DNA of 64,000 bases from Patescibacteria group bacterium (GCA_040757555.1 JBFLWN010000005.1:8045-72044), one strand, 5' to 3'; shown: positions 12,346-59,283, counted from the first letter of the stretch. Program-made: numbers and translations. Notes: generated by a model not told the origin, from the sequence alone.

Positions 12346-12420
12346 ACCTCTTTATTGTAATAAAAGTTTATTAATAATACTACCATAACAATAAAACTAA
12401 ATCAATGTATTGTCAAATAT

Positions 12421-12450
12421 AAAAACCGCCATTACTTGGCGGTTTATTTT
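12421..12450 (-). terminator. Rho-independent terminator
   Basis: AAACCGCCAAGTAATGGCGGTTTTT on the minus strand. Confidence 0.6.
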
Positions 12451-37395: not shown

Positions 37396-37863
37396 TTAAT
37401 AATGGTATGTTTTGCCATTCATGATTGTTACCGCTCTATATATCTGCTCGAGAAGTACTACACGTGCAAGTTCGTGTGGAAATGTGAAAGATGAAAGTGC
37501 AATCTTTTTATGTGGAAGCGAAAGAACCTCTTCGCTCATTCCCAGTGATCCGCCAATTACAAATATGGTTGGTTTTAACGTTGTTTCGAGTGCGCCCGCA
37601 AATTGCTCCGATGTATACTCCTTTCCCCGCTCATCGAGAATGAATACCTCACATTCTCCCCTTTTTTCTAAAAATCTTTTAATTCGTTCCCCCTCTTTTT
37701 GTTTTACCTTATTCTTTTCTCCCTCGTGACGAAATGGTTCATACGGAATTTCCTCAACTGAAATCCGAGCATAGAGAGAGAGACGTTTCGTATATTCTTC
37801 ACACGCTTTTTTGAAATACTCTTCTTTTATTTTCCCAACCGTAAGAATGGTGATATCTAACAT
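37396..37863 (-). CDS. rlmH: 23S rRNA (pseudouridine1915-N3)-methyltransferase RlmH (SPOUT)
   Basis: MLDITILTVGKIK...FVIGGSLGMSEEV; typical RlmH length and motifs. Confidence 0.8.
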   Translation of the reverse strand: MLDITILTVGKIKEEYFKKACEEYTKRLSLYARISVEEIPYEPFRHEGEKNKVKQKEGERIKRFLEKRGECEVFILDERGKEYTSEQFAGALETTLKPTIFVIGGSLGMSEEVLSLPHKKIALSSFTFPHELARVVLLEQIYRAVTIMNGKTYHY

Positions 37864-37968
37864 TTTTCCATTATCACGCACTTTTCTTATTAAAGAAAGT
37901 TAAGAAATGAGATTGACTAAATATAAATAAAATATTAAAATATAAAACAGATATTTAACTCATTAAAT

Positions 37969-42503: not shown

Positions 42504-42578
42504 TCCGGAGTAGCTCAGCGGTAGAGCAGGTGCCTGTTAAGCACTTGGTCGTAGGTTCGAATCCTACCTCCGGAGCCA
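42504..42578 (+). tRNA. tRNA-Asn (anticodon GTT), CCA encoded
   Basis: Acceptor TCCGGAG/CTCCGGA, D-arm GCTC-AGCGGTA-GAGC, anticodon loop CUGUUAA, T-arm GTAGG-TTCGAAT-CCTAC, GCCA 3' end. Confidence 0.85.
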
Positions 42579-44066
42579 AGTAGGACTACTAGCTAGTTCT
42601 AGTACTAAGTTGAAGGGAGAACGCAAGGTAAAATCTAGCGTTCTTTCATTTACGGTCGGGTTCTGAAGCAGATAATTCAAAAATACTCGTTTTTCTTCTG
42701 GTTCAGAACTTTCGAAAATTTGTTTGGCCCTGCGAGCGACAGAAAGTACCATAGATACAGTCGTTTGATAGTCGTAGTCGGCTTTTGTGTGTTCTTCTAG
42801 TTCAATGTTTAAGAGTTGAAGCCTGTCGTGGTATTCTTGATGTTTCTTGTCATAGATATTCTTAGTAATACTCTGTTGTGGATCTAGATAAACCTCAAGA
42901 AGTCGATTGTCCTTCTCTTTGGTTCGTTCATATTCATTGCGTATTCGAGCTATTTGAGCTTTATGAAAAACAATCTCGCTTTCTGTATCTTTTCTCAACT
43001 CTTCTACGAGATAATCTTGAGTTGCTTGTATAATACTCTCAAATCGGCCAAAAACCTCGTATACGGGCTTTAAGAGGTCTTTCTCGGGTATATAAAGCCT
43101 TTTACATATTCTTTTTGCATTTGTGCAGGAATAGTAATTTATTCCTTTATGAAACTCTCCAGACATAGAGCAACCACAGTTACTACATTTAAGTAAGCAA
43201 TTTCCAAATACATATTTTTTCTTCGTAAGTAATTTTGATCTGCGTTTGTTACGTTTTGCACGTACTTGTTGGCACATATCAAAGAGTTCCTTAGTAATTA
43301 ATCTAGGGTATTTGTGAGGGTACGGTCCATATTTTTTTGATATAGCTATTCCACAATAAAAGCTATCTTTTAAGATATGTTCAACTCCACTTTTTGATAG
43401 CTTGTTTTCTTTTAAGGTTCTTAAACCAAGTTCAGTTATTGTATTTCGAATAGTTTCAAGTGAATATTGTCCCGTTGCATATAATTCAAACATTTTTTTT
43501 ATTAAATATTCCCGTTCAGGATCAAGAATAATATCCTTACGCAATCTTTTTTCTGCATCAAGTTGAACATTTAAATAACCTAAACGTACTACTCCTGTCC
43601 ATTCTCCATTCCTACGCTTTTGTTCAAATGCCCGTTTTACATTATCGCTAATAGCGTCTGAATAATACTTAGAAAGACCAAGTTTCATTCCAAACGCAAA
43701 CTTATCCCCGGCAGACATTTTGTTGTTGATTACTTGTCCATCTGAAACAAAATGAAGTTCAATTTTATCATCAACAGCTCGCTCATAAAGTAACGCAACT
43801 CGCTTATCAAAGATATTTCGAGATAAACGATCTACCTTATCAAAACAAACCGCAATTTTTTCTTTAGAATTGTTTACACATTCAATGATTTTGTCGAATT
43901 CGTCTCTTTTGGTTTTATATGCACTTTCATCAAAACTGAACTCTTGAGTAACAATATAATCATTTCGTTCACAATAATCACGCATACGATTAAGCTGAGC
44001 GGGTAAGGAATTATTAGCCTCTCTTTGCTCTTCAGTTGACACTCTTGCTACGATTACTGCTTTCAT
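42564..44066 (-). CDS. Large serine recombinase (integrase)
   Basis: N-terminal resolvase catalytic domain AVIVARVSTEEQ (Ser nucleophile); recombinase domain; Cys-rich zinc ribbon (CSNCGC...C..C); C-terminal coiled coil. Confidence 0.85.
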   Translation of the reverse strand: MKAVIVARVSTEEQREANNSLPAQLNRMRDYCERNDYIVTQEFSFDESAYKTKRDEFDKIIECVNNSKEKIAVCFDKVDRLSRNIFDKRVALLYERAVDDKIELHFVSDGQVINNKMSAGDKFAFGMKLGLSKYYSDAISDNVKRAFEQKRRNGEWTGVVRLGYLNVQLDAEKRLRKDIILDPEREYLIKKMFELYATGQYSLETIRNTITELGLRTLKENKLSKSGVEHILKDSFYCGIAISKKYGPYPHKYPRLITKELFDMCQQVRAKRNKRRSKLLTKKKYVFGNCLLKCSNCGCSMSGEFHKGINYYSCTNAKRICKRLYIPEKDLLKPVYEVFGRFESIIQATQDYLVEELRKDTESEIVFHKAQIARIRNEYERTKEKDNRLLEVYLDPQQSITKNIYDKKHQEYHDRLQLLNIELEEHTKADYDYQTTVSMVLSVARRAKQIFESSEPEEKRVFLNYLLQNPTVNERTLDFTLRSPFNLVLELASSPTWLRR

Positions 44067-44072
44067 AGTTAA

Positions 44073-45038
44073 TTATAAATTTGGTGAATAAGAAATAGAT
44101 TTTATATAATCCTCCATAAATTGCCAATCAAGTTGACCATCGTTAGTAACTGGAAATTTTACCTTCAATGCAGAAAGTCTCTCCTTTGTCGCTCCTCTGC
44201 CATAGTTAAATTTCTTTGCAATTTCCAAATTTAATAGAGGGAGAATAAATTGTGAATTATATCTATTAAGATTCTTATTCCTAAATATATTTACTTTATT
44301 TCCTGTTATGAACGGTGTGGGCTGATAAAATGCCTTAAATCCTTCAGCTCCGATTGTTATGCACCCCCCTTTTTCGGTCGGTATTGATGTTTCATTTTTA
44401 ATGAACAATTCAACTCCATTGTTCTCTGTTGTTCTTGTGACATATGCTATCTTCCCAACTTCTTCGTTTTCAATCTCTTCTCTATGAATTGGCTTACCAA
44501 GTGAAGGCTCAAATATTTCGTCTAGTTTGAAATACTTCCATTTGTCTATATTTAATTTTTTATCTTTTATAGATAATGCTTTTTTTTCTAAAGAATTTAG
44601 TTTATCTAAATCGAGGTCGGTCCATTCATTGGGTATTCTTTCTGGAATTAAAATATCCTTCAATGTTTTGTTTGCCTGCCTACCATAATTATATCTATAT
44701 TTATTCTTACGAATGCAATAACAATAAAAAATCATCTCAATTTCAGATGGTTGTTTTTTGGGTATTAAAATATAAATATCTCTCCCACTATAATATTGCT
44801 CGTGTTGAAAAAAGGTGGCTAAAACAGAACCGCCACCCGCAACTGAAATGGTATGGGCTGGATTCGGCTGAATTTCATTTATTTTTTGTACATAGGCAGA
44901 CACCCCATTGTTTTTGTCGGTTCTAGAAACAAAGTTAACAGAATTCCTGTCTTGTTTCGAACATTCCTCCAAACTAATAAGTTCTAAGTTCACCCCATAC
45001 TTAACTTCAAATAGATCACTAACTTTTACCAACTTCAT
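44073..45038 (-). CDS. Restriction-modification specificity subunit (two target-recognition domains; HsdS/BcgIB-like)
   Basis: Two half-repeats beginning VKVSDLFEVKYG and FKLDEIFEPSLGK; 4-nt overlap with the MTase gene. Confidence 0.6.
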   Translation of the reverse strand: MKLVKVSDLFEVKYGVNLELISLEECSKQDRNSVNFVSRTDKNNGVSAYVQKINEIQPNPAHTISVAGGGSVLATFFQHEQYYSGRDIYILIPKKQPSEIEMIFYCYCIRKNKYRYNYGRQANKTLKDILIPERIPNEWTDLDLDKLNSLEKKALSIKDKKLNIDKWKYFKLDEIFEPSLGKPIHREEIENEEVGKIAYVTRTTENNGVELFIKNETSIPTEKGGCITIGAEGFKAFYQPTPFITGNKVNIFRNKNLNRYNSQFILPLLNLEIAKKFNYGRGATKERLSALKVKFPVTNDGQLDWQFMEDYIKSISYSPNL

Positions 45039-46843
45039 AAATATAGTTCTTTAAAATAAACAAAATCTTTGACCGACTTTACGAAATCTTCTTTAGATAA
45101 ACCCGAATAGTCTGTTTCCATATAAGCCTCAGCACACCACTCATCATCGGCAGAGACAACTTTAGTGACACTAAAACCGGGTCTCTCTTCTTTATTTAGA
45201 TATGAGGTTATCCAATCTTCTTTTATCTCTTTCTCAAATTTCTGATACAAATCAATCCTTCCTTTCATTTTTCGTTTTACAAAACCATCATTTTTATAGT
45301 AACCGAAGTAAACCTTTTTATTTTTAGGATGAGGTCTTTTGGCTGTAAAAACCATAATACAAGAAACGACTCCAACCTTTGAGTTAAAAAATAATTCGTC
45401 AGGCATAGAAAAAACTGCTTCCAGAGTGTGTTGTTCTAGTACCCTTTTTTTATATTCATAAACCTTACCAGTTTGAGCTAGTGCAGATTGCATAGGAATA
45501 ATAGCAACACATTTCCCGCCTTGTTCTAAAGAATCCAGATTGTTTAATATAAATTCATATTCATCTACATCATTTTTCTTGTCTGCTTTATAGGGTGGAT
45601 TCAGAAGCCCTACTGTGGGTTTAAATTTTTTGGCTTTTTTTATAATATCTTCATCAAAACAACTCCCATTCAGAATATTAGTTTTGCCATCTTGATGGAT
45701 AAACATATTTGAACAAGCAAGTGCAAATATATGTGCCTGATATTCGACACCAACTAACTGATTCTTCTTTATATTTTTTATTTTTTCTTGGTCTCCTTTT
45801 GCATCTTTTATCATTAAGTTCATAGCACTAACTAAAAATCCTCCGGTGCCAGCACAATTATCATATACCGTGCTATCCTTATTTACCTCGGCTAATTCCG
45901 ACATAAACTCTGTGATATGCGGAGGCGTAAGAACTATCCCCAAACCTTTGTCACTATTAGCATATCTCAGAAATTCAATATAAAGCTGTCCAAGAACATC
46001 AAAATATTCGTGAGTTTTTATAAAGTCTTTTATATTTTCATTTATATCGGAAATAATATCTCGCAAAACATTGTTTTTCTTTGATAGTGATGTGTCTGTT
46101 TTTATAAATTCAAAGCGACTAGTTAAAATTGCTAACTTAATTTCCCCAATGTTCGCATTTTGAAATTCATTTTTAACCGTGGTGACTAAATATTCAGCTA
46201 ATTGTTTTGGATCTGAATAATCTTTATAAGATTTGGAAAAGGCCTTGTTTTCGAGCGCAATCAAAATACAACTTATAAGTAATCCTCTATCACTTTCAAC
46301 TATTTTTTGTCCGTGTAATTTTTCATTTAATTCCTTAGAAAATATCAATAATTTTTCGTAATCTTGTCTAAATTTTTCAGGACTTTTAATATAACCATCC
46401 AGATAATCATCCGGGGATAAAAGTTTATTACTAAATATTTCAATTGCCTTCCTATCTCCTTTTAGTTGAAGAAAATGTGATATTTTTTTGTTTTTATTCG
46501 TTTCACCACTAACAGCAATAGATAGTACATCAAATTCTTTTGAAAGATATGAACTATACAAAAGAACACCATCTACCGAAAAGTCTTTGTAATTTTCTCT
46601 ACTAGAACTTTCGTGCTTAGTAACATCGGCCTTACATTCAACAACAATAACGAAATCTGGGTTTTTCTTATATTGGATAATAAATTCAGGGAACCCAGTA
46701 CCTAAGCCACCTTTGGAAGCTGTTGCTAATAATTTTTTTATTTTTGGATTATCAGATGATTGTTCTTCTAAAACTATGTTCTTAGGGAATTTTTCGAAAT
46801 GACTTCTGACTATCGACTCGGTTTTCCGTTCGTTTTTTGACAT
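45035..46843 (-). CDS. BcgI-like RM subunit: N-terminal PD-(D/E)xK nuclease domain fused to gamma-class N6-adenine DNA methyltransferase
   Basis: NPDFVIVVECKAD nuclease motif; MTase motif I DNCAGTGGF; motif IV NPPY. Confidence 0.75.
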   Translation of the reverse strand: MSKNERKTESIVRSHFEKFPKNIVLEEQSSDNPKIKKLLATASKGGLGTGFPEFIIQYKKNPDFVIVVECKADVTKHESSSRENYKDFSVDGVLLYSSYLSKEFDVLSIAVSGETNKNKKISHFLQLKGDRKAIEIFSNKLLSPDDYLDGYIKSPEKFRQDYEKLLIFSKELNEKLHGQKIVESDRGLLISCILIALENKAFSKSYKDYSDPKQLAEYLVTTVKNEFQNANIGEIKLAILTSRFEFIKTDTSLSKKNNVLRDIISDINENIKDFIKTHEYFDVLGQLYIEFLRYANSDKGLGIVLTPPHITEFMSELAEVNKDSTVYDNCAGTGGFLVSAMNLMIKDAKGDQEKIKNIKKNQLVGVEYQAHIFALACSNMFIHQDGKTNILNGSCFDEDIIKKAKKFKPTVGLLNPPYKADKKNDVDEYEFILNNLDSLEQGGKCVAIIPMQSALAQTGKVYEYKKRVLEQHTLEAVFSMPDELFFNSKVGVVSCIMVFTAKRPHPKNKKVYFGYYKNDGFVKRKMKGRIDLYQKFEKEIKEDWITSYLNKEERPGFSVTKVVSADDEWCAEAYMETDYSGLSKEDFVKSVKDFVYFKELYL

Positions 46844-46847
46844 AAAA

Positions 46848-47030
46848 TTATTTTGTTTTCGTTTTATTTAAAAACTCCTCAAATTCGACTTTGTCTATCC
46901 GAAACTCTTTACCGATTTTATACGCTTTAAGTTTCTTTGCTTTGATGTATCGATAAATCGTCATAATATTTACCTCTAATTTTTCAGCCAAATTTTTTGC
47001 AGTATAAAATTGTTTTTCTCTATCTCCCAT
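46848..47030 (-). CDS. Excisionase/AlpA-family HTH DNA-binding protein
   Basis: 60 aa; NIMTIYRYIKAKKLKAYKIGKEFRI. Confidence 0.55.
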   Translation of the reverse strand: MGDREKQFYTAKNLAEKLEVNIMTIYRYIKAKKLKAYKIGKEFRIDKVEFEEFLNKTKTK

Positions 47031-47032
47031 AA

Positions 47033-47302
47033 TTAAGCTATTTTTTTAAAACTTGTTTCTTTTTTAATCCAAATATCAACCACATTTTTATTATCCGGAT
47101 TCTCTTTTTCATTGAGTTCTATGGTTTTAGTTAAGTATCCTTCTTTTTCAAGATCTTCTATATATTCTTTAAATCTAGGATTAGTCCTATTAAAATGCCC
47201 ATTGTATTTATATCCCATTGCCAGTAATTCACTGTGGTCATATTCTGGGTTAGGACCAGTACCACCTCCAGCAAATGCATCCTTGTATTTATTTATATCC
47301 AT
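47033..47302 (-). CDS. Hypothetical protein (island)
   Basis: 89-aa ORF. Confidence 0.35.
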   Translation of the reverse strand: MDINKYKDAFAGGGTGPNPEYDHSELLAMGYKYNGHFNRTNPRFKEYIEDLEKEGYLTKTIELNEKENPDNKNVVDIWIKKETSFKKIA

Positions 47303-47333
47303 AAAATAATTATACTTTACATTGCTTTACACA

Positions 47334-48440
47334 CTAAGTGGATAACTTTTTATATTTATATGGCTCAAATTCAGCAAGTGCTTCATCTATTTGGATCACC
47401 CAGTTTCTGATTTTATTATTGGTAATTATTTTATTTGCTGTTTGCACATCTCTCATAAATCTATACCAAGTGCGACAATTGGATTTTTTTGAAAGAATGG
47501 ATCGTAACATTCTAAATCCCCCGTCATCCTTAGCGAGTGTGGTTAATCCAATTAAATAAATCGCTTGTTTTGGTCTTATTTTTTTATTACCCACAAAAAG
47601 TATTCGCAAAGCATCCTTCATACTAAATGGCAATGCAAATAGTCCGAGACTTCTTTCTTTTATTAATCTATTCCAATAATAGATCATTACTTTCTGGCTA
47701 AGATCGGAATTAAATATATCTTTGAAGATTAGATTTTTTTGGTAACCTAGTTGTTCAAAGAGCTTATTCATCTTTTGTTTACTTCCTAATCGTATCTCAA
47801 AACGAATTATTTCAACTGATCCTTCTTTGAGATCTTCAAAAAGACTCCGCTGATATTTTGGTTGCTCTTTATCTATCGCTCGCTTATCTTCTTTTTTGAG
47901 ATCCGCGATTTTGTCATAGATAACAAGTTGATGAGAAGTAGTATGAGCATATAAACTCTCTCCACCGTTGATGTATCGAGTTTGTGCTAAATCAAAACAT
48001 TTTGTGATATTAACTTTATTTATTTCAGAAATTACATAACTTACTGTAAATCCATCCCTTAGTTGTATATTTTTAGAAAAATGAACCGAACTTACCGATG
48101 CATTCTCTAACACCTCCTTATCTGCTATAACTCCCATTGCGTTTAATCTTTCTTGCAACATATTGATCACTGATGGAAAATCACTCTGTTGGACCTCATC
48201 CAAATTATTAAGAAAAAGTAATTTCGGGATTGAAAACTCTATTCTTATATTCTTTTCCTTGCCCAACCCATTGCGTTTATAGCCCGTAAGACGGGGTAGA
48301 TAAGACCATTTCTCCAAATCATTTTTTGATGGATTTCTCACGAACTTTTGATATTGAGCAGTTTTTGAATTAAGATCCCAGGCCCCGACAGAAAACCTTA
48401 ACTTGTCCATTGGGATAAGCAGATTTATTGTATCAATCAT
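47334..48440 (-). CDS. Hypothetical protein, possible replication/mobilisation initiator of the element
   Basis: 368 aa; position between xis-like gene and an origin-like intergenic region; no firm motif. Confidence 0.3.
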   Translation of the reverse strand: MIDTINLLIPMDKLRFSVGAWDLNSKTAQYQKFVRNPSKNDLEKWSYLPRLTGYKRNGLGKEKNIRIEFSIPKLLFLNNLDEVQQSDFPSVINMLQERLNAMGVIADKEVLENASVSSVHFSKNIQLRDGFTVSYVISEINKVNITKCFDLAQTRYINGGESLYAHTTSHQLVIYDKIADLKKEDKRAIDKEQPKYQRSLFEDLKEGSVEIIRFEIRLGSKQKMNKLFEQLGYQKNLIFKDIFNSDLSQKVMIYYWNRLIKERSLGLFALPFSMKDALRILFVGNKKIRPKQAIYLIGLTTLAKDDGGFRMLRSILSKKSNCRTWYRFMRDVQTANKIITNNKIRNWVIQIDEALAEFEPYKYKKLST

Positions 48441-48657
48441 TGTTTTGTAATTGTTTTTTTACGTAAAGCGACGGGTTTATTCGCTTGTCGACTTTTATAA
48501 GTAATGCGAAAAAACCAACAAGATTATGTCTCTCTTCTGACGATAATTCATCTAACTTTCCACATTTTTTCTTATCAACTTCCTGCATAAATAATAATCC
48601 AGTGTTTATGCAACTAGGCTATTATTTACTTGAAATCTTATACAAGAATTTTGTGTA

Positions 48658-49485
48658 CTACACTTCTTTTCTTCTTTTTTTCTGAATGGAAATAATTTTT
48701 CCTATCATCCCCTCATCCACCGAAAGCTCGTCTGGAAAACGTTCAATGACTAGACTCATAATTTTTTTGTGTGGAAGTTGACGGCTATCATAGATAAATA
48801 GATCTCTTTGGACTATAGATTTCTTTTTTGTTTTTATTTTTCCAATTTTAACTTCGGTAATCTTATACCCATTTTGTAGTGGTTTGACCTCTGTTTTATA
48901 TGTTTTTTCGATAAAATCTAAAATATCTCTCTTGCTCATATACGGACTTATCTTAATTGCGATTGGATATGCCTTATTGTCATATTCCTCAAAACATTCG
49001 TAATCTTCTCCAAGGTCTTTTTTGTCTCGCAACAAATCTCTTACAACTGCAAGATTATAAGAATTAAAATCCACTGGCTCTACGAACTCGTCGTAAAAAA
49101 GATAATTAAGAAAAACTTCATACCATTCGAGATAATGTAGATAATATTTATCAAGAAGGGTCTTAATTTCCACACTCAAAACACCCCACTTTTTCTTGTT
49201 TCTTATATATTTCCATTTTCCTGGCATTATAAATCTGGATGACGGATTATATTCATCTCTTTTTTCTACTGGAGAAAATCCAGAATCGGGAATTTCAAGT
49301 TCTTTCCTAAGTTTTTTTATTTTTTCGTTCACAAAATCACTCTGTAAAATCACCTCTACATAATTCTTAAGTTTTTTATAAGACTGCGTCTTAATATTTG
49401 CACTCGTACGTTTTTTTGCGTTTTCTTCAAGAAACTGAAACATCGGAACAAATTCCCCGTTTTCATTCAGATTTGCCATATACAA
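48658..49485 (-). CDS. Hypothetical protein (island)
   Basis: 275-aa ORF; basic. Confidence 0.35.
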   Translation of the reverse strand: MYMANLNENGEFVPMFQFLEENAKKRTSANIKTQSYKKLKNYVEVILQSDFVNEKIKKLRKELEIPDSGFSPVEKRDEYNPSSRFIMPGKWKYIRNKKKWGVLSVEIKTLLDKYYLHYLEWYEVFLNYLFYDEFVEPVDFNSYNLAVVRDLLRDKKDLGEDYECFEEYDNKAYPIAIKISPYMSKRDILDFIEKTYKTEVKPLQNGYKITEVKIGKIKTKKKSIVQRDLFIYDSRQLPHKKIMSLVIERFPDELSVDEGMIGKIISIQKKRRKEV

Positions 49486-49589
49486 TAATTAAAACCTATT
49501 TAAAAACATTTCATAGTCTTCACGTAATTCTCAAAAAACGATAAAAGTGCTAACGTATAATCAACAACCAAATAAGAGACCTAACCCCA

Positions 49590-49815
49590 AGAAATTCCAA
49601 CATTTTCCGATATTTCCTGGGTAGGGTTTAAAACAAGCGCGACGAGCATAAAGATCCCATCATCAGGGTCGCTCGTCGCGTCATACAGGGAAACTTGTAT
49701 GTAGGTCGCAAGGCCTTACCTGGTGGTGGGTTTTTTGATTTTCTACCCCCCAGGTTTTCCTATATTTACCGAAGTCTTGTCCCCGATAGTTCCTTATATT
49801 TTCCGATATTTGTTT
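49590..49815. promoter_or_regulatory. Structured, GC-richer intergenic region with 10-bp perfect GC inverted repeat and three copies of TTTTCC(G/T)ATATTT (origin/oriT/att-like)
   Basis: CGCGACGAGC...GCTCGTCGCG hairpin at 49637..49680; iteron-like repeats at 49604, 49755, 49799; CCTGGGTAGG / CTACCCCCCAGG inverted motifs. Confidence 0.4.
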
Positions 49816-49859
49816 TTTAGAAATTTTATTAAAAGGTCAAAAAATAATGATAAATTCTT

Positions 49860-50048
49860 ATGAATTTAGATAAAAAGATTAAATTCAGTGATGTTTTGTG
49901 GTCAATTATTCCGGCAAGTATTTTGATTTCTGCGTTAAATGTGTTTTTGGGCGTAAGGGGTACATTAATTCCGATATTATCAGTTGCCTTTTTCACATAT
50001 CTAATAAGTAGGGTTAGGATTTGGAGAAACACACACAAATCTAAATAA
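49860..50048 (+). CDS. Small 2-TM protein
   Basis: 62-aa ORF. Confidence 0.3.
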   Translation: MNLDKKIKFSDVLWSIIPASILISALNVFLGVRGTLIPILSVAFFTYLISRVRIWRNTHKSK

Positions 50049-50143
50049 AATGGCCATAATTATTTGTAATACCATAAAAATTTGGATGTTTTATACCCCC
50101 ATTCTTCCTAGTTTTTCCTAGTTTTAAAAATCTTTAATTACAT

Positions 50144-50446
50144 ATGGATAACAATAAAAACACCATAGTTATTATATTCTTGACATATTGGATTGGAGCG
50201 ACCGCCACGTTGTTATTGCCAATAAAAAATTCCCCAAGGAATATATTTTTAGTCGCGATTATAGGAATTATTTGGTCATTTACTATTTTTATTTCCCTTT
50301 TTGACAAAAATAATTCTGGCAATTTATATCGATACACGAGAAATAGACCTAATATTCGGTTTAAAAATAAAAAGAAGGTTATACAAAAATCACTCGTTAG
50401 GTCATTACAAGAAGAAAAAGATCTAAATAATAAAGAGGATTTTTAG
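50144..50446 (+). CDS. Small membrane protein
   Basis: 100 aa; 2 TM plus basic tail. Confidence 0.35.
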   Translation: MDNNKNTIVIIFLTYWIGATATLLLPIKNSPRNIFLVAIIGIIWSFTIFISLFDKNNSGNLYRYTRNRPNIRFKNKKKVIQKSLVRSLQEEKDLNNKEDF

Positions 50447-50489
50447 CTCTTTACTTCAACTTGCACAATGGTATTGTTTCATACATAAA

Positions 50490-51263
50490 ATGGAAGTCCC
50501 AAATAATATAAGACACATTTTCGAGAAAATCGAAAAAAGCGAGGATGAATGGAAAGCTCTTTATATGGCTGTTTGGTATTATTCTTATTACATCAAAGAT
50601 GAATATATAGACAGTGGAAAAAATGACCCAGCAGAGAAATTATCTAGACTTATAAATGGCTCTGGAACAGCCTCCACTATTAAAGTGTTTGATTTTAAAA
50701 CAGGAACAGGGACTGCTAGTAGTGCCGTCATAGTGTTTCCAGATGAAAGTCCGGGTGAAGAGATAATTAATCTTGAATTACCAGCATCAAAAAAGGGGCA
50801 CTCTTACAAATGGAAGCCAAAAGAACTTTATTCTATTCTCACATCCCGGGATGGACAATTTACTCTCGGCCATCTACAAACACTCTTCTCATTATTTGAA
50901 GAGTTGTTATGTGAAACATCTAAGACGCTTTTTGATTTAGAAATAAATACCGGAAAATGGAAGGGAATAGAAACTTTCTTTAGCCAAAATAGTTTTAAAG
51001 ATATTCTTTTACCAGAAGAACTCGGGGAATTAAAATTAGCAAAAGAAACAAGAAATTGTTTTATTCATAACAACTCAAAAATAGATGATAAGTGGTTGTC
51101 TGCATATCAAGGCGTCAGAGAAACCAAAACATTACTCCCTGACTTAATAGGAGCAGATTTAGATAGTGGGCTACAAAATACATTCCACGAAATAGAAAAT
51201 TGGCACGATTTAATTGTCGATATCTCTAAAAGAATTGTGGAAAAAATCTCACGTATGAATTAA
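50490..51263 (+). CDS. Hypothetical protein with HEPN-like R-N-x3-H motif (Abi-like candidate)
   Basis: ELKLAKETRNCFIHNNSKIDD near the C-terminus. Confidence 0.4.
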   Translation: MEVPNNIRHIFEKIEKSEDEWKALYMAVWYYSYYIKDEYIDSGKNDPAEKLSRLINGSGTASTIKVFDFKTGTGTASSAVIVFPDESPGEEIINLELPASKKGHSYKWKPKELYSILTSRDGQFTLGHLQTLFSLFEELLCETSKTLFDLEINTGKWKGIETFFSQNSFKDILLPEELGELKLAKETRNCFIHNNSKIDDKWLSAYQGVRETKTLLPDLIGADLDSGLQNTFHEIENWHDLIVDISKRIVEKISRMN

Positions 51264-51265
51264 CT

Positions 51266-51766
51266 ATGATACCTATAAAAACGAAAATACGAAGGTTCTG
51301 TCTACTCTGCAAACATCATAAACTTTTTTCGTTTCTCTCTACTCGGTACAAATTAAAATTGAACTCTCTTCACGGGAAAAAACATTGGTCCCGCGTTGGG
51401 AAAATCGGAACTTATTTGTCTTATTATACCGGTGCTGATTGTGAGGTGGTGTTTTTATTCGCCTATTTACACGACATAGAGCGGAACAACGAAAATTATG
51501 ATCCAGAACACGGACAAAGATCGGCTGTATTTATAGAAAAATTATATAACGAAAAAAAGATTAAAATCTCACAAAACCAATTAGAGCTACTCACATTTGC
51601 CTGTCAACACCATAACAACTCTGATATGAAAAGTGATAATGTCACCATTCAAACTTGTTGGGATGCAGATAGACTAGATTTATGGCGCGCTGGCATCATT
51701 CCCGATCCATCTCTACTGAACACCGAGTTTAGCAAAACAGAAAACGCAATCAATTATCTAAGATAA
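51266..51766 (+). CDS. HD-domain phosphohydrolase
   Basis: H...HD...H...D pattern: LHGKKHW, YLHDIER, CQHH, DADRLDL. Confidence 0.5.
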   Translation: MIPIKTKIRRFCLLCKHHKLFSFLSTRYKLKLNSLHGKKHWSRVGKIGTYLSYYTGADCEVVFLFAYLHDIERNNENYDPEHGQRSAVFIEKLYNEKKIKISQNQLELLTFACQHHNNSDMKSDNVTIQTCWDADRLDLWRAGIIPDPSLLNTEFSKTENAINYLR

Positions 51767-51814
51767 GATCCCTATTTACCACAGTTTATAAAGTGATATT
51801 GTTCAATATATAAA

Positions 51815-52006
51815 ATGGATGTATTCGAAATAACACTAAACATAATCTGGAAGCCCATATATTTCGTATGGAGATTAATACGTTGGTTTTCTCTCCTTAT
51901 TTGGAAGTTTTTGAAGGATATAATGAACAGTCTTTATGGAAAAATAATAGCAATCTTAGCTACCGCCATTTTGACATATCTAATATCCCAACTATTGAAC
52001 AAATAG
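51815..52006 (+). CDS. Small membrane protein
   Basis: 63-aa ORF. Confidence 0.3.
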   Translation: MDVFEITLNIIWKPIYFVWRLIRWFSLLIWKFLKDIMNSLYGKIIAILATAILTYLISQLLNK

Positions 52007-52033
52007 ATCTACTAGCCTATCATCAGGATAAAA

Positions 52034-52291
52034 TTGTATAATAGAACTATGACTGATAAAGAAATAATTTTTAATACTCCAAAAAACCTCGATGAGTTTA
52101 CAGATCAATTTGTGATTTTCTTCTCAGAAGATGCAGAACCAAAAGTTTTGTTCAATTCTTTTATTGCGGAAGAGACCTACAAAAAAGCTGAAGAAATAAA
52201 AATAGAACAAAACAGGGAGCCTGTGGTAATTAGAGTTCAGAAAAGTAATATATCTAACAGCATCACACAAATGTTGTCGATGAGGTTTTAG
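52034..52291 (+). CDS. Hypothetical protein
   Basis: 85-aa ORF. Confidence 0.3.
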   Translation: MYNRTMTDKEIIFNTPKNLDEFTDQFVIFFSEDAEPKVLFNSFIAEETYKKAEEIKIEQNREPVVIRVQKSNISNSITQMLSMRF

Positions 52292-52295
52292 TTGT

Positions 52296-52967
52296 ATGTT
52301 CTGTAAGGTCCCATATACAGCAATAGGAGGAAGACACCGACCTTATCTCGAGGTTGTTTTTTCTAATAAACTGAAAAATAAAAACAGTAACAAAACATTT
52401 GCGATGGTTGATTCTGGTGCAGATCATACCGTTATCCCATTTTCAATAGGGGCATTTATAGGACTAACTGAGCCAACTCAAGAAGAAAAATTAGCAAACG
52501 TAAGTGGTGTTGGTGGTAATTTAAGTTACATAGAAAGAAAATGTAGAATTTATGTCGCTAATAGGATGAGAAACAAGACCTATGGGTTTGATGAAACTGT
52601 TTGGTGGATATATCCAGATGCCGACACACAAAAACAACAAGAATCTCTAGCAAAAACGCTTCAGGAACTACAAGTCCTTCAAGCTCAAAGTTATCCAGGT
52701 AGTGATCTTTTTAATCACTTCGAAAATCAAAAAAAGCAGACAATTGATAATTTTATAGCAATTGCCAATAAATTAGAAACTGGGGTTCTTTTAGGTCGTC
52801 CATTCTTCGATAATTTTGATTTTATCCAGTTCTTCCATAAGGATCGAAGTAGAGAAGACAGGTGTTTTTTTAATTATAAGGTCGCTAACAACAAAGCGGT
52901 TGAGGTATTACCAATTCAACAAACCGACTTTATAAACCAGATTCAAGCTACTAAGCAAGAAGGTTAG
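52296..52967 (+). CDS. Retropepsin-like (clan AA) aspartic protease domain protein
   Basis: AMVDSGADHTVIP (D-S-G-A active site) and LLGRPFF flap/C-terminal motif. Confidence 0.5.
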   Translation: MFCKVPYTAIGGRHRPYLEVVFSNKLKNKNSNKTFAMVDSGADHTVIPFSIGAFIGLTEPTQEEKLANVSGVGGNLSYIERKCRIYVANRMRNKTYGFDETVWWIYPDADTQKQQESLAKTLQELQVLQAQSYPGSDLFNHFENQKKQTIDNFIAIANKLETGVLLGRPFFDNFDFIQFFHKDRSREDRCFFNYKVANNKAVEVLPIQQTDFINQIQATKQEG

Positions 52968-53144
52968 TGTGGAAGGATTTTTTGGGATTTACAAAATCAA
53001 AGATTCCACTAAACTCAAGTTCCTGTTTTATTAACCCCCAATTAAGAGTTCTGAACTTGTTTACCATTGGGAGCAGAGTTGACAAATCTACTTTTATGCC
53101 TTATAATATGGGCAGTATTTTAATTCATAAAAAGGAGTATCAAA

Positions 53145-53585
53145 ATGATTGGTCAATACACCTTAAAACTCTCTGACGTTGTAGCATCCGAGAATTTATT
53201 CTCAGACAAGGAAAAAATTAATAACATTATCCGAGTCCTTACATTTGATTCAATTGAGGGCTTCCTATTCTGTCTCAAATTTAATTTCTTGCCAGGATGG
53301 ACACTTCCAGAAGATATCCAACAGCATCATGTCTTCTACAAAGTGAAAAGAGAAAACGGAGAACTCACTCCCCTCAGATGGGCTGACTCCATACAAGGAG
53401 AAACAGAAAAGATATTTGTCCTCGCCTTGAAAGATAGTACCTTCAGAATAATTCTTCGAGAGAATTATCAAATTCATTTCTCCGAAGTACATTCCGGAAA
53501 TCCAAAAATGATTTTAGGTGTCAGAGAAATTCCGGGTGGCTATGATATAGCTACTGATATCGGAAAATATAGTATACAGAATTAA
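53145..53585 (+). CDS. Hypothetical protein
   Basis: 146-aa ORF followed by a strong terminator. Confidence 0.4.
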   Translation: MIGQYTLKLSDVVASENLFSDKEKINNIIRVLTFDSIEGFLFCLKFNFLPGWTLPEDIQQHHVFYKVKRENGELTPLRWADSIQGETEKIFVLALKDSTFRIILRENYQIHFSEVHSGNPKMILGVREIPGGYDIATDIGKYSIQN

Positions 53586-53588
53586 AAA

Positions 53589-53616
53589 GAAACCCCGATC
53601 TATTTCGGGGTTTTTT
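53589..53616 (+). terminator. Rho-independent terminator (cassette boundary module)
   Basis: GAAACCCCGATCTATTTCGGGGTTTTTT. Confidence 0.75.
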
Positions 53617-53636
53617 CTTTATTCCACTTTAATCCT

Positions 53637-53706
53637 GGTTCTAATATCGTCTAGCACTGTGAGCAAACGTATTGACAAACGTAAATAACCGTGCTATAAT
53701 TAGCAC
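53637..53706 (+). promoter_or_regulatory. Cassette promoter-operator module copy 1
   Basis: GGTTCTAATATCGTCTAGCACTGTGAGCAAACGTA-TTGACA-17nt-TATAAT; palindrome GTGCTATAATTAGCAC overlaps the -10. Confidence 0.6.
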
Positions 53707-53736
53707 AGAAAATAAAAAACATCAAAGGAGTTTAGT

Positions 53737-54006
53737 ATGGGAACTACGGTATTGGATATTCTAAAAGCTGAACAAACAGCATTGGATATTGCAGCACAAA
53801 AAATTGACCTAACATACGAACAAGTATGTGGGAATTTAAAATTTTATTGTGGCTGGAATCCAAAAACAGAAGAAGGAATAAAAGAACAAATAACTTCTGG
53901 ACTACCGCAACTAAAAGACGTAAAGGTTAAAGTGTGGGGATTTTTTCACGTAAAAATAACTTTTACTATGCCAGACGGAACTCGTAGGAAATATGAGTAC
54001 AAATGA
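53737..54006 (+). CDS. Hypothetical small protein (cassette 1)
   Basis: AAAGGAG RBS; 89 aa. Confidence 0.45.
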   Translation: MGTTVLDILKAEQTALDIAAQKIDLTYEQVCGNLKFYCGWNPKTEEGIKEQITSGLPQLKDVKVKVWGFFHVKITFTMPDGTRRKYEYK

Positions 54007-54094
54007 ATTTTTAACTTAAGCCACCGAAATATATAGTAGGTGGCTTTTTTTCAAAACTCTACATCAATTCAAATTCATTTCGCATTCCTCACCT

Positions 54095-54163
54095 ATTCTC
54101 GTTCTAATATCGTCTAACACTGTGAGCAAACGTATTGACAATAGCACATCTCTGTGCTATTGT
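54095..54163 (+). promoter_or_regulatory. Cassette promoter-operator module copy 2
   Basis: TCTCGTTCTAATATCGTCTAACACTGTGAGCAAACGTA-TTGACA; palindrome ATAGCACATCTCTGTGCTAT in the spacer; TATTGT -10 candidate. Confidence 0.6.
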
Positions 54164-54190
54164 TTTTATAGTTCTATCACACAAATAAAT

Positions 54191-54427
54191 ATGGAAGAAA
54201 AGGCATTTTTAGTCGGAACGCACAGAGCAATGTTTCACGCTGGAGAACCAGCTGAAATTACTGAAGTTGTTTTTTCAACTCCAGAAGGACTTAAACCTCG
54301 TGCCTGTTATCGAGTTCGTTTTGAAAATGGAGATGAAGACCTTATACCGATTTCTGAATCTCATCATTTCGAAATAATATCGGAAAGTGATGTAAAATCA
54401 GAAAAAATACCTGAAGTTATTCATTGA
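54191..54427 (+). CDS. Hypothetical small protein (cassette 2)
   Basis: Start MEEKAFLVG downstream of the promoter module; the ORF-track start 54122 lies inside the promoter. Confidence 0.45.
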   Translation: MEEKAFLVGTHRAMFHAGEPAEITEVVFSTPEGLKPRACYRVRFENGDEDLIPISESHHFEIISESDVKSEKIPEVIH

Positions 54428-54439
54428 TCAATATTAGAA

Positions 54440-54466
54440 AGAAACCCCGAAATTCTCGGGGTTTTT
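54440..54466 (+). terminator. Rho-independent terminator (cassette boundary module)
   Basis: GAAACCCCGAAATTCTCGGGGTTTTT followed by GCTATTTTATATCCCCCAC. Confidence 0.75.
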
Positions 54467-54486
54467 GCTATTTTATATCCCCCACC

Positions 54487-54552
54487 CTCGTTCTAATATC
54501 ATCTAAAACTCTGAGCTAAAATTAAAAAAGATGATTTTGCGTCATCTTTTTT
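54487..54552 (+). promoter_or_regulatory. Degenerate module copy (no -35) plus hairpin terminator
   Basis: CTCGTTCTAATATCATCTAAAACTCTGAGCTAAAATT then AAGATGATTTTGCGTCATCTTTTTT. Confidence 0.45.
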
Positions 54553-54674
54553 AATTTCTGTTTTTTGACGGTAGGATTCGAACGGGAAAGGGGTCGGGAA
54601 AACGGAAGTTTTCCCGTGGTGGAAGTATTGAAACCGCAAGGTGTCAGAGAGCGAATAAAATGGGCGACGTGAGA

Positions 54675-54689
54675 TTCCTACCTCCGGAG
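54675..54689 (+). repeat. 15-bp exact direct repeat of tRNA-Asn 3' end (TCCTACCTCCGGAGC); candidate attR core
   Basis: Identical to 42562..42576; extended 17/18 match. Confidence 0.65.
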
Positions 54690-54694
54690 CATCC

Positions 54695-54723
54695 ATTGAC
54701 AATAGCATAGAAATATGCTATTT
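54695..54723 (+). promoter_or_regulatory. Cassette promoter-operator module copy 3
   Basis: TTGACA-ATAGCATAGAAATATGCTAT(palindrome)-TATTTT at 17-bp spacing; immediately follows the tRNA-fragment repeat. Confidence 0.55.
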
Positions 54724-54760
54724 TGTTTGTAGAAATTATTAACAAATTATAGGTGAAAGA

Positions 54761-55189
54761 ATGAAGGGAAAATTGCCGATCACAGAAAAAATTATCCTCG
54801 AAAGCAATGAGGATCAGTGGCGATTAAAAGTAAAAAAACTCATCACTGATTTCAAGACGTCTGGGATCATTGAAAAAGAACCTGGCACAAAAGTGCGAGT
54901 GCAACTTACAATAAACGAAATCATTCCTCCGGAAAGGGTCCGCTGGGAAAAAATACTGTCTCTCAAAACAGACAACCATGAGGAATATACGGAAAGTCTA
55001 AGAAAATCGCTTTTGTTTCTCTATGATTCGATGCTCAAGACAATCTGGACCTTTTATGGATACATAGAAGGAGAACAAAGAATCCCTATAATCATTATTT
55101 ACGTCGAATCCACGAATGTTGGTATATATACGCAAAAACTGAAAAGTGAATCGACAGAACATTTTTTCCCACCACATCTCTTGAATTAA
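54761..55189 (+). CDS. Hypothetical protein (cassette 3a)
   Basis: RBS AGGTGAAAG; 142 aa. Confidence 0.45.
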   Translation: MKGKLPITEKIILESNEDQWRLKVKKLITDFKTSGIIEKEPGTKVRVQLTINEIIPPERVRWEKILSLKTDNHEEYTESLRKSLLFLYDSMLKTIWTFYGYIEGEQRIPIIIIYVESTNVGIYTQKLKSESTEHFFPPHLLN

Positions 55190-55201
55190 AAGGAGGTAAC
55201 C

Positions 55202-55570
55202 ATGCCACTCGTACTTGTGCAGTATAAACAATTAGCATTCCTGGAAGAGGTTGTAGAAAAACTTTCAAAAGCGCTTCCAAAGATTGTAGCACCGAACCTT
55301 AATCTTTCTGAATATGAACGACTCGCGGGAGGTGTACTTCCAGAAGATATTATTGTTCGATGCACCAAGGGAGGGAAAATGGATACAAATGAAAAAGATA
55401 TTGGAATCATTATCTTTGCCCACGACTTCCCCGAGCGAAAAGAAAATCTCGAAGAACGCAAAGACGCTATCATAAAAGGCATTCATGAGTTTCTGGCTAC
55501 CAATTATGAACGCAACGTCTCTGGCTTCGTATGGATACTACTCGCACCGTCTGCATTTGGACAGTTATAA
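55202..55570 (+). CDS. Hypothetical protein (cassette 3b)
   Basis: AAAGGAGG RBS 12 nt after the previous stop; 122 aa. Confidence 0.45.
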   Translation: MPLVLVQYKQLAFLEEVVEKLSKALPKIVAPNLNLSEYERLAGGVLPEDIIVRCTKGGKMDTNEKDIGIIIFAHDFPERKENLEERKDAIIKGIHEFLATNYERNVSGFVWILLAPSAFGQL

Positions 55571-55576
55571 TTAATA

Positions 55577-55605
55577 TAAAACCCCGATCTATTTCGGGGT
55601 TTTTT
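55577..55605 (+). terminator. Rho-independent terminator (cassette boundary module)
   Basis: AAAACCCCGATCTATTTCGGGGTTTTTT followed by GCTATTTTATATCCCCCAC. Confidence 0.75.
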
Positions 55606-55623
55606 GCTATTTTATATCCCCCA

Positions 55624-55693
55624 CTCTCGTTCTAATATCGTCCAAAACGTTGAATAAATATATTGACTAACACCACCCGTAAGTGGTATTTTG
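55624..55693 (+). promoter_or_regulatory. Cassette promoter-operator module copy 4
   Basis: CTCGTTCTAATATCGTCCAAAACG...TTGACT-17nt-TATTTT with CCAC..GTGG inverted repeat in the spacer. Confidence 0.5.
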
Positions 55694-55730
55694 TTTTTAG
55701 TTGTTTATCAATATCATTTTGGAGGTTTCT

Positions 55731-56297
55731 ATGAGAATTACAGAACAAGTAAGAGAATTACTCGAAGAACTCATGGATAATAAATGGCACCTTCAACCGC
55801 CTCGTGGGGTTGGAAGGAAAACAGTAGATTTCTGGATTGAACGCAATTGGATCAAAACAAAAACCGTTCCAATCGCCAGCAAAAATAAAGTCCAATCCTT
55901 TTTTATGCCACTTCAAATTACAAAGAAGGGGCGAATTGTCTATCTGAATCAGAAATATCAAAACAAGAAACGTTTACCGAAAGAACTCATTGAATACCGA
56001 TTAAAACAACTTCGACAAGTGGTAGGCGTTCAGGTTGTCCGATCTCTTCAAACACGGAAATCATTTCTTTTTGAGTGGCGCCGTTCAACCCCCCACAACT
56101 GGTGGGTAGAGAACAGGAGGGGCAAAATGCTGTGGCATTCTTCTGACGATCGCAGTATACGACAAATCCCCGATTCGATGTTATTCGAAATAGTAAAACA
56201 CTCAAAAAATCTTATCATTACCGGTTCGTGGCTTGCAGGAAGAGATGAAGGAAGGCCCGAAGAAACAATATATCGACTTAAAAAGATTTATTCTTAA
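55731..56297 (+). CDS. Hypothetical basic protein (cassette 4)
   Basis: GGAGG RBS then ATG (MRITEQ); 188 aa; Trp/Arg-rich. Confidence 0.45.
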   Translation: MRITEQVRELLEELMDNKWHLQPPRGVGRKTVDFWIERNWIKTKTVPIASKNKVQSFFMPLQITKKGRIVYLNQKYQNKKRLPKELIEYRLKQLRQVVGVQVVRSLQTRKSFLFEWRRSTPHNWWVENRRGKMLWHSSDDRSIRQIPDSMLFEIVKHSKNLIITGSWLAGRDEGRPEETIYRLKKIYS

Positions 56298-56302
56298 AAA
56301 CA

Positions 56303-56328
56303 AAACCCCGATAACCATCGGGGTTTTT
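56303..56328. terminator. Terminator (partial boundary module)
   Basis: AAAACCCCGATAACCATCGGGGTTTTTGCTATA. Confidence 0.7.
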
Positions 56329-56350
56329 GCTATACTCTAAAACAAAATAT

Positions 56351-58764: not shown

Positions 58765-58918
58765 AGTTTTATTCTCCTTTTATTGTAAATATAACTATTC
58801 AATAGTATATACAACACTTCCTTTTTGTCGAATTACCCGTTTTTTTGATATTCCAAAGAAAAATTATACACAAACCGCAGATATAGTAATTTCGAATGAA
58901 ATCTTGTATAGTAAATCC

Positions 58919-59173
58919 ATGGCAAAAACCAATTCGGCGTTCATGAAGCCGATGAACGTCAGTGAAGAGTTAGCAGCGGTAGTCGGAAAGGGACCAATGC
59001 CACGGTCTGAGGTCGTCAAAAAGCTTTGGGTATACATCAAGGAGAAAGATCTCCAAGATCCAGCCAATAAGCGGAACATTAATGCCGACGAAAACTTAAA
59101 GAAAGTATTCGGTGGCAAAGCGGTAGTAAACATGTTCGAAATGACGAAACTCGTTTCAAAGCATCTTTCCTAA
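58919..59173 (+). CDS. SWIB/MDM2 domain protein
   Basis: ELAAVVGKGPMPRSEVVKKLWVYIKEKDLQDPANKRNINADENLKKVFG matches the SWIB consensus. Confidence 0.65.
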   Translation: MAKTNSAFMKPMNVSEELAAVVGKGPMPRSEVVKKLWVYIKEKDLQDPANKRNINADENLKKVFGGKAVVNMFEMTKLVSKHLS

Positions 59174-59283
59174 GATCCGACGATGAGTAAAGAAATGGCG
59201 TCGATACTCTCGGCGCTATTTTTTTGCTCTTATGAATAATCTCCATTCAAATAATTGCTATATTGTGACTTTTTTGACATAAT

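Follow-up and report, generated by a model that had tools for sequence, protein, structure and literature searches.

Evidence for a serine integrase-based integrative element at the 3' end of a tRNA-Asn gene in a Patescibacteria bacterium

Results

A large serine recombinase gene runs into the 3' end of tRNA-Asn

The DNA analysed here is a stretch of 64,000 nucleotides from a Patescibacteria group bacterium (GCA_040757555.1, JBFLWN010000005.1:8045-72044), called the window throughout and used for all coordinates unless a contig is named, in which a putative integrative element adjoins a tRNA-Asn gene. This gene (anticodon GTT), the proposed integration target, occupies positions 42504-42578 on the plus strand and was recognized by ARAGORN and by the Rfam tRNA model (73 bits). 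A gene on the minus strand (42564-44066), encoding a protein of 500 amino acids (aa), runs into its 3' end. The protein matches the Pfam families Resolvase (E = 1e-19, residues 3-156), Recombinase (E = 9e-15) and Zn_ribbon_recom, the last with 25.7 bits and thus barely over the cut-off of 25.3, as well as the PHROG integrase family (E = 3e-69). S10 in the motif RVSTEEQ is invariant in 35 family members, and the cysteines C294, C297, C314 and C321 are conserved in the family. Judged by its catalytic and C-terminal domains, the protein is a large serine recombinase (LSR), and we refer to it as the integrase. More than 2000 cluster representatives are related to it, the best 120 of which are all at least 67% identical. 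With the NCBIfam models CcrB, CcrA and CcrC it scored 73, 51 and 43 bits, against cut-offs of 700-900 (900 for CcrB).

The integrase gene ends with ...TGG CTC CGG AGG TAG. The stop codon TAG corresponds to CTA in the T-stem of the tRNA, resulting in an overlap of 15 nt, and the overlap of a serine recombinase gene with the tRNA-Asn 3' end reported in a first-pass annotation of the window is therefore real. The last two integrase codons of family members vary with the acceptor stem of the host tRNA (CGG AGG, CCC GGG, CGG GGG, CGG TGG). The 3' T-stem, 3' acceptor strand and discriminator of tRNA-Asn are spanned by a 15-nt sequence, TCCTACCTCCGGAGC (42562-42576), the last five nucleotides of which, GGAGC (42572-42576), are the short core that this site has in common with a second site at 53070-53074. 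The 15-nt sequence occurs exactly twice in the window, in direct orientation, with no further match at up to two mismatches, and none of 100 shuffles yielded a match when two mismatches were allowed. Its distal copy lies at 54676-54690, 1 nt above the position first given (54675-54689). The native tRNA trailer and a promoter follow this copy, which marks the outer limit of the insertion.

Relatives with an empty tRNA-Asn site

An empty tRNA-Asn site was found in four independent contigs (L097, L098, L099 and L101, from three ENA samples and one NCBI metagenome-assembled genome, MAG), none of which has an integrase there. In the empty-site relative the left-flank protein is 86% identical to that of the window and tRNA-Asn is identical. 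After the tRNA, the empty site reads directly ACCCATTGACAATAGCACAG... (ACCCATTGACAATAGCACAGAGATGTGCTATTTTG), which is homologous to the window from 54691 onward, ATCCATTGACAATAGCATAG... (ATCCATTGACAATAGCATAGAAATATGCTATTTTG). A three-way alignment of attL, attR and attB showed the empty site to equal the window's tRNA side through GGAGC and its far side from TCCTACC on, and blastn aligned the empty site with the window at 84% identity over 82 nt. Synteny with the empty-site relative extends over 15 kb on the left, and on the right both the gene for a 142-aa protein just beyond the repeat (54761-55189; homologue 64% identical) and a SWIB gene (58865-59239) have homologues in it. Since the tRNA of the empty site continues directly into what in the window comes after position 54690, 42577-54690 is an insertion.

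The host can be placed from two further observations. Homologues of a 528-aa left-flank protein carry the name Candidatus Jorgensenbacteria, and a Patescibacteria MAG at NCBI encodes a protein 100% identical to the integrase, indicating that the host is a bacterium of the candidate phyla radiation (CPR). No match was returned when the integrase and three flanking proteins were looked up by exact sequence. Taking the data together, we consider it highly probable that 42577-54690 was inserted into the chromosome of a Jorgensenbacteria-like member of the Patescibacteria, in the 3' end of its tRNA-Asn gene, and that it holds a complete LSR-based integrative element. The first-pass annotation had proposed integration into the tRNA gene with regeneration of its 3' end and had pointed to an empty attB in relatives and to base composition as ways of checking this; the four empty sites and the two-sided synteny bear the proposal out. 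The composition agrees as well: the insert has a GC content of 0.332 compared with 0.377 for the host, the tetranucleotide deviation reaches z = 3-4.3 across 42-53 kb and the host level is regained by ~53-54 kb, so that the shift is confined to ~42-53 kb.

Two other contigs came up in the search for empty sites and were set aside. A GTDB scan with the left-flank protein returned one contig that ends ~110 nt past the tRNA, and a JGI scan with the exact tRNA sequence returned another; in both, a different integrase sits at the site.

The tRNA itself is intact in the occupied state. The encoded CCA is present in the window tRNA-Asn (GGAGCCAAG; 42576-42578) and absent from the tRNA-Asn of the empty site (GGAGCACCC; L097 9209-9212), showing that this CCA is contributed by the element. 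Contigs L001 and L009, which have another LSR at this site, likewise read GGAGCCA at the tRNA end. In L002, a 26-nt stretch of the 5' part of tRNA-Asn is duplicated (11574-11599 and 11721-11746), 147 nt past the tRNA.

It is exceedingly unlikely that the region is instead a fixed ancestral island that acquired its repeat by chance. No excised form was observed, as such an island would lead one to expect, but relatives have empty sites, the repeat was not reproduced by shuffling, all core open reading frames (ORFs) of the element are intact, and several Patescibacteria contigs with other flanking genes and other tRNA-Asn sequences have a member of its family at the same tRNA.

How far the element extends to the right was also considered, since the boundary had at first been called provisional on account of promoter/terminator modules continuing to ~56.3 kb. 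An element reaching that far, with the cassettes past 54690 included, would be one unit of 13.8 kb or two intact elements in tandem. Two modules past the repeat (55569-55653 and 56293-56329) indeed share 89-92% identity with modules on its left, but the same promoter directly follows the tRNA of the empty-site relative, which also has the same type of module in its own array (L097 8208-8296) and the homologue of the 142-aa protein; moreover, 54691-56345 has the GC content of the host (0.382) and a second integrase is absent from the window. We thus regard the cassette array past 54690 as chromosomal and the longer element as very unlikely. The tandem or nested arrangement suspected at the same time fared better in that a composite structure is probable; it is located inside the region bounded by the repeats and not beyond it.

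Core operon, restriction system and cargo

Upstream of the integrase gene lies a leftward operon, all genes of which are on the minus strand. The gene next to the integrase (44073-45038) encodes the specificity subunit of a restriction-modification (RM) system with two target-recognition domains (Pfam Methylase_S; PADLOC Specificity_II, E = 1e-31, with two halves matched). It is preceded by the gene for a fused type IIG restriction endonuclease-methyltransferase of 602 aa (45035-46843), which matches PADLOC REase_MTase_IIG over its full length with 564 bits and also Pfam N6_Mtase. By these matches, the two genes form a BcgI-like two-gene RM system (type IIG/IIB). Next comes a gene for a 60-aa excisionase-like DNA-binding protein (46848-47030; Pfam HTH_17, E = 4e-12; PHROG excisionase), which its family name and strict conservation make a likely candidate for a directionality factor or regulator. 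Then follow an 89-aa protein (47033-47302) that is not conserved in the family loci examined, a 368-aa core protein (47334-48440), a 51-aa core protein (48433-48588) and, as the first gene of the operon, a 275-aa protein (48658-49485), the position of which is kept in the family while its sequence is not.

The 368-aa protein is weakly similar to replication initiators. It has 902 homologues, one of which is named 'Replication initiation protein' by UniRef, and one of 33 members of its family matches Pfam Rep_trans (PF02486) with E = 0.002; the window protein itself has no Pfam match. An AF2 model (pLDDT 72) matched unnamed viral proteins of ~370 aa in BFVD (E = 2e-7) and, weakly, an Inoviridae 'REP', and gave no match in a comparison with the PDB. 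The family has an invariant Y175-D176-K177 and an R213-F214-E215 block, which we take to resemble motifs of Rep_trans. The protein may possibly act as a rolling-circle replication initiator for the excised circle.

The remaining genes are found on the plus strand. A LOOT RNA (Rfam RF03000; 49578-49717) matches the full-length model with 66.8 bits, compared with a gathering score of 46.4. It is located in the divergent intergenic region that heads the rightward cargo and is oriented opposite to the integrase. No LOOT RNA reached the gathering score in the scanned family loci of other hosts (L002, L003, L005, L006, L010, L012 and L014). A second one (77.6 bits; L009 717-839, minus strand) lies inside an unrelated element with a 548-aa LSR at the same tRNA of a relative. 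The rightward cargo (49860-52967) comprises small membrane-like ORFs, a 257-aa protein, an HD-domain protein (51266-51766) and an 85-aa protein paired with a protease. The protease of this pair (52034-52967), encoded after the 85-aa protein, is a retropepsin-like aspartic protease by weak matches to Pfam RVP and clan AA; L014, a distant family member, has a counterpart in its cargo (1870-2660), a pair of DUF5678 and Asp_protease_2 proteins. The gene content that had been listed behind the integrase, i.e. an RM pair, an excisionase-like protein, a Rep-like candidate and cargo, was thus correct, as was the orientation of the leftward core; the cargo (49860-54427), however, lies on the opposite strand and not, as listed, in the same orientation.

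Neither a relaxase, a type IV secretion component nor a coupling protein was matched by Pfam, NCBIfam or PHROG among the ORFs of 42.5-54.7 kb, several of which are without any match, so that a novel relaxase is possible. Virion structural or packaging genes are likewise missing from the Pfam and PHROG matches of the element.

A family of elements at a tRNA-Asn hot spot

The architecture of the family was derived from the contexts of seven relatives of the integrase, and gene sharing was measured by tblastn. The family operon ends at the tRNA and has the order variable first gene, ~50-aa protein, ~370-aa protein, sometimes a small gene, HTH_17 protein, RM system and integrase. Only four proteins are common to the family by tblastn, namely the integrase (69-78% identity), the HTH_17 protein (72-74% across all family loci), the 368-aa protein (52-61% across all family loci) and the 51-aa protein (44-69% across all family loci). 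The RM slot differs by locus and is filled by Dcm plus a SacI-like enzyme, by an N4/N6 methyltransferase plus an EcoO109I-like enzyme, by an Eco57I-like enzyme or, in the window, by the type IIG enzyme with its specificity subunit. The family cargo, divergent from the core, is of the defence type (AbiEii, AbiTii, SocA, an aspartic protease pair).

In five lineages of the family, the integrase stop codon lies within a tRNA T-stem. The tRNA is tRNA-Asn in four of them (the window, L002, L010 and L012), each with a 15-nt overlap, and differs in sequence and in flanking genes between loci. In L014, the tRNA is interrupted by a group I intron (11526-11742; 89.9 bits with Rfam) and for this reason was not seen by ARAGORN; here it is the 3' exon that the integrase gene overlaps. 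tRNA-Asn genes with group I introns have been reported from Patescibacteria (PMC13011429).

The same tRNA-Asn gene is also used by other integrases. A second LSR lineage (548 aa, 27% identical) ends in the exact tRNA in L001 and L009, and a third (527 aa) overlaps it by 15 nt in L096, a 94% relative. At least three serine-integrase lineages thus use this one tRNA-Asn gene. Contig L103 has tandem LSR elements (1304-2911 and 11028-12669). Its family integrase is without the TAG stop and extended to 535 aa, and 8 kb off a 526-aa LSR (25% identity) overlaps tRNA-Asn by 15 nt, with TAG in the T-stem. L003 (11900-19284) and L005 (8148-15507), which have an identical integrase, differ in the orientation of a downstream 7.5-kb block (HTH, N4/N6 methyltransferase, ResIII helicase, AAA_13), with a break ~310 nt beyond the integrase stop; a recombinase-mediated inversion is possible.

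The presence of an LSR and an excisionase-like protein, both with PHROG matches and both common in temperate phages, could indicate a prophage or phage satellite instead of a plasmid-like integrative element. We consider this quite unlikely: no family locus examined has capsid, portal, terminase or tail genes, and there is room for only 12 kb. In two scans of 2.9 million viral contigs in IMG/VR no full-length family member was encountered; the scan with the integrase alone was empty and the profile scan found only LSRs of ~25% identity.

Proposed att-site geometry and the probable distal end of the mobile unit

While the outer limit of the insertion is given by the distal repeat, the mobile unit itself may be shorter. 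A 27-nt family motif, GCTCCCAATGGTAAACAAGTTCAGAAC (GCTCC-N18-GAAC), lies at 53048-53074 on the minus strand and includes the GGAGC core (53070-53074). Each family locus contains it, in one copy per element and inside a conserved block of ~70 nt; non-family loci have none. Read in the direction of the integrase, the motif starts with GCTCC, the complement of the tRNA GGAGC, and has AGTTCAGAAC at 23 nt from that G. On the tRNA arm the counterpart, ATTCGAAC in the T-loop, is at 18 nt, and this offset of 5 nt was found in all five tRNA-linked members. The motif is in dyad symmetry with AGTTCTAGTAC of the last integrase codons, the centre being 1 nt outside GCTCC. LSR sites of the LI type consist of inverted half-sites, with the zinc-ribbon motif 5 bp nearer the centre in attB (PMC3783163). 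The inverted half-sites, the short common core and the +5 shift in the proposed attP and attB fit this rule as a sequence pattern, and we propose that the P half-site of attP is formed by the motif.

Tandem junctions in other contigs point the same way. In L002, the motif abuts the TGGCTCC end of another LSR gene. The family integrase of L103 passes TGGCTCC into foreign sequence with extension of its ORF, and in L003-L008 the extended ORF continues past TGGCTCC into an attP-type arm with 23-nt spacing instead of a tRNA. From these junctions and the site geometry, we favour 53048-53074 as the functional attR, albeit with some reserve, and a mobile unit of 10.5 kb at 42577-53074. The 1.6 kb from 53075 to 54690 would then probably be an older remnant of earlier events at the hot spot, ending in a displaced native tRNA 3' end. 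The arm inside the distal repeat has tRNA-type spacing and 17/29 further matches to the tRNA, as would be expected if an earlier event had displaced the native tRNA end to this place.

Alternatively, the whole insertion could be a single element of 12.1 kb with the repeat at 54676-54690 as its distal att site and the 27-nt motif as an internal feature, e.g. a replication origin or a regulator-binding site. The repeat is exact and the native trailer comes after it, a 24-nt repeat in L012 adjoins a structured segment homologous to the one next to the window's repeat, and the terminal segments adjoining these repeats have sequence in common in spite of different hosts. However, the arm interior to the repeat has the tRNA-like spacing of an attB and not that of an attP, and no such repeat is present within 10 kb in L002 or L014 (a clear copy of the tRNA end was likewise not found over this distance in L010). 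The structured segment is missing beside the motif in L002 and L003-L008, the motif of L002 abuts another LSR's end, the +5 offset and the dyad favour the motif as P half-site, and 53-54.7 kb has a host-like composition and modules of the chromosomal array. We regard the single 12.1-kb unit as possible but doubtful.

Several points nevertheless weigh against the 10.5-kb unit and the functions assigned to it. Both distal ends, 53074 and 54690, are viable; the 15-nt repeat at the latter is perfect, and it and the 24-nt repeat of L012 would both be compatible with one unit of 12.1 kb. When attP and attB were rebuilt from the 15-nt repeat and scanned for dyads, only weak, uninformative maxima were obtained. 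The conservation of the P' arm may in part stem from the C-terminal peptide of the integrase rather than from a DNA site. The Rep assignment is weak, given that the window protein matches neither Pfam nor the PDB, no transfer genes for movement from cell to cell were found in the element, and its mobility as a whole is deduced by comparison of sequences. Two sets of contigs bear on the far end to a limited extent: around the motif, 281 nt are identical throughout the P0004 contigs (L003-L008), so that the left break lies further out, and the P0010 contig, in which a tandem arrangement is seen, ends 1.3 kb upstream of the integrase and is uninformative on the far end.

Cassettes and a structured segment near the distal repeat

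Between the proposed attR and the distal repeat, three small cassettes (146 aa, 89 aa and ~78 aa; 53075-54514, plus strand) each have a TTGACA promoter and a terminator, with modules of the chromosomal-array type between them. Probably they were captured or remain from an older element. A perfect sigma-70 consensus promoter (TTGACA-17-TATAAT, 12/12; 53079-53107, plus strand) lies 5 nt past the proposed attR core and drives the 146-aa gene; in the native tRNA trailer of the empty site a TTGACA promoter is found at an equal distance. Each module consists of a terminator, AAAACCCCGA..TCGGGGTTTT, a conserved spacer ending in GTTCTAATATCnTCTAnnACTnTGAGC and a TTGACA promoter with a palindromic, operator-like ATAGCAn..nTGCTAT. 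Copies are located at 53580-53700, 54084-54171, 54432-54514, 55569-55700 and 56293-56345 and at L097 8208-8296, those within 53075-54690 being 80-87% identical to one in the array of the empty-site relative.

In reverse complement, the module spacer reads GCTC-N19-GAAC and is then followed by the promoter, the same format as the family attP half-site plus core and tRNA trailer. Because of this match in length and spacing and of the promoter that follows, each module would be an old attR scar, and the array is suggestive of a row of such scars. Tentatively, the cassettes near tRNA-Asn (53.1-54.5 kb and 54.7-56.3 kb, and those of the empty-site relative) could then form a gene-capture array built by serine integrases, an integron-like platform in CPR bacteria. 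Elements would enter at the tRNA and excise via alternative attR-like sites, thereby losing or gaining distal cassettes.

The cassettes are followed by a structured non-coding segment (54515-54675, minus strand) with a bidirectional terminator (54525-54553), an inverted half of the tRNA T-arm, GGTAGGATTCGAAC (54570-54583), and ~90 nt more. It contains a long-range helix, GGTAGGA / TCCTACC. The same layout is present in L010 (4490-4650) and L012 (2409-2600), with fold z-scores of -5.2 and -4.5, respectively, compared with -1.75 in the window. Read on the minus strand over 54515-54690 (~150-170 nt), the first part of the segment is complementary to the tRNA-Asn 3' end, so that a transcript of it would be antisense to the tRNA, and a T-arm half in the same sense and a terminator are found at the other end. 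The segment might represent a small RNA, a single-strand origin or a scar of recombination. A minus-strand tRNA or tmRNA at 54515-54690 was considered and dismissed, as ARAGORN and Rfam find nothing there. Elsewhere in the window, a tRNA-His gene is located at 10925-10999 (minus strand).

Discussion

A model for integration at tRNA-Asn

On the basis of the site comparison, we propose a circular form with an attP of ~55 bp, the P' arm of which would lie in the last integrase codons and the P arm in the 27-nt family motif. The integrase would recombine this attP with the tRNA end, at or beside GGAGC/CCA. The T-loop of the tRNA would serve as attB half-site, with the shifting motif, GTTCAGAAC, 5 bp nearer the centre than in attP. 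As the element is predicted to carry its own copy of the last tRNA bases including CCA, the tRNA would stay intact, and the integrase ORF would thereby come to end at TAG within the T-stem. The HTH_17 protein is a likely excision or regulation factor and the 368-aa protein may replicate the excised circle. The predicted attP junction via 53074 has GGGAGC joined to CAAGTAGGAC; for the 10.5-kb unit as a whole, the predicted junctions are ...GAGTTCTGAACTTGTTTACCATTGGGAGC joined to CAAGTAGGACTACTAGCTAGTTCTAGTAC (attP-A) and ...GGTTCGAATCCTACCTCCGGAGC joined to AGAGTTGACAAATCTAC (attB-A). A unit of 12.1 kb would differ at these points. Its attP via 54690 would have CTCCGGAGC, preceded by GTGAGAT, joined to CAAGTAGGAC, and its junctions would be ...GGGCGACGTGAGATTCCTACCTCCGGAGC joined to CAAGTAGGACTAC (attP-B) and ...CCTACCTCCGGAGC joined to ATCCATTGACAATAGC (attB-B).

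The family is spread widely in Patescibacteria contigs, and the RM system is different in almost every copy examined. The elements would thus be a main vehicle of defence genes in their hosts, the genomes of which are tiny and in which few other mobile elements are known. They also provide many natural sets of integrase, attP and attB with readable geometry, which could serve as orthogonal recombinases for genome engineering. In the literature searched, the coverage of which was incomplete, we found no paper on this element family, and the nearest one, on genomic islands of Patescibacteria, is silent on integrases and tRNAs (PMC12455944).

Comparison with known systems

With the LSRs of phages (A118/LI, Bxb1, phiC31, SPbeta) the integrase shares the Resolvase, Recombinase and zinc-ribbon domains, and the proposed sites share a short core, an attP of ~55 bp, inverted half-sites and the 5-bp shift in attB, here as a sequence pattern only. 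The element differs from them in being non-phage, in its tRNA target and in an integrase ORF that runs into the target, which makes one attP half-site coding; the phage LSRs in IMG/VR are only ~25% identical to the window integrase. The staphylococcal cassette chromosome (SCC; SCCmec with its Ccr recombinases) is similar in other respects. It too is a non-phage, non-conjugative LSR island in the 3' end of a conserved housekeeping gene that is kept, with RM and defence cargo, and at its site tandem or composite islands are built and remnants without a recombinase occur. In SCC the target is rlmH and not tRNA-Asn, and the rlmH-like gene of the window (37396-37881) is untouched; furthermore, a single recombinase is present here, its scores with the Ccr models are far below the cut-offs, and the host belongs to another phylum. 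For the 368-aa protein, a possible likeness exists to pT181-type rolling-circle plasmids (Rep_trans), resting on the one family member with a Pfam match and the UniRef name; the difference is that solved Rep structures gave no significant match to the protein in sequence or fold.

In appearance, the element resembles the tRNA islands of the Islander type, which combine an integrase beside an intact tRNA, a restored 3' end, a displaced fragment at the far end and empty sites (PMC4383910). Those islands have a tyrosine enzyme, whereas the serine recombinase is the only recombinase of the window element, which thus falls outside the Islander definition, and the probable crossover core here is only ~5 nt. 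To our knowledge, serine integrases are generally held not to target tRNA genes. In a survey of 2168 genomes with TIGER, 14 of 297 serine-integrase elements were predicted at t(m)RNA genes, a pairing that was called unreported and in need of proof (PMC7192596; Mageeney et al., 2020). The window element has the same rare integrase-target pairing; compared with the TIGER set, the pairing here holds for the whole of a very large family and two or three other LSR lineages, in CPR hosts and with an inferred att architecture. We conclude that the element is of the SCC and phage type in its working and a classical tRNA island in its look, with an unusual integrase-target pairing in an otherwise fairly ordinary mobile element.

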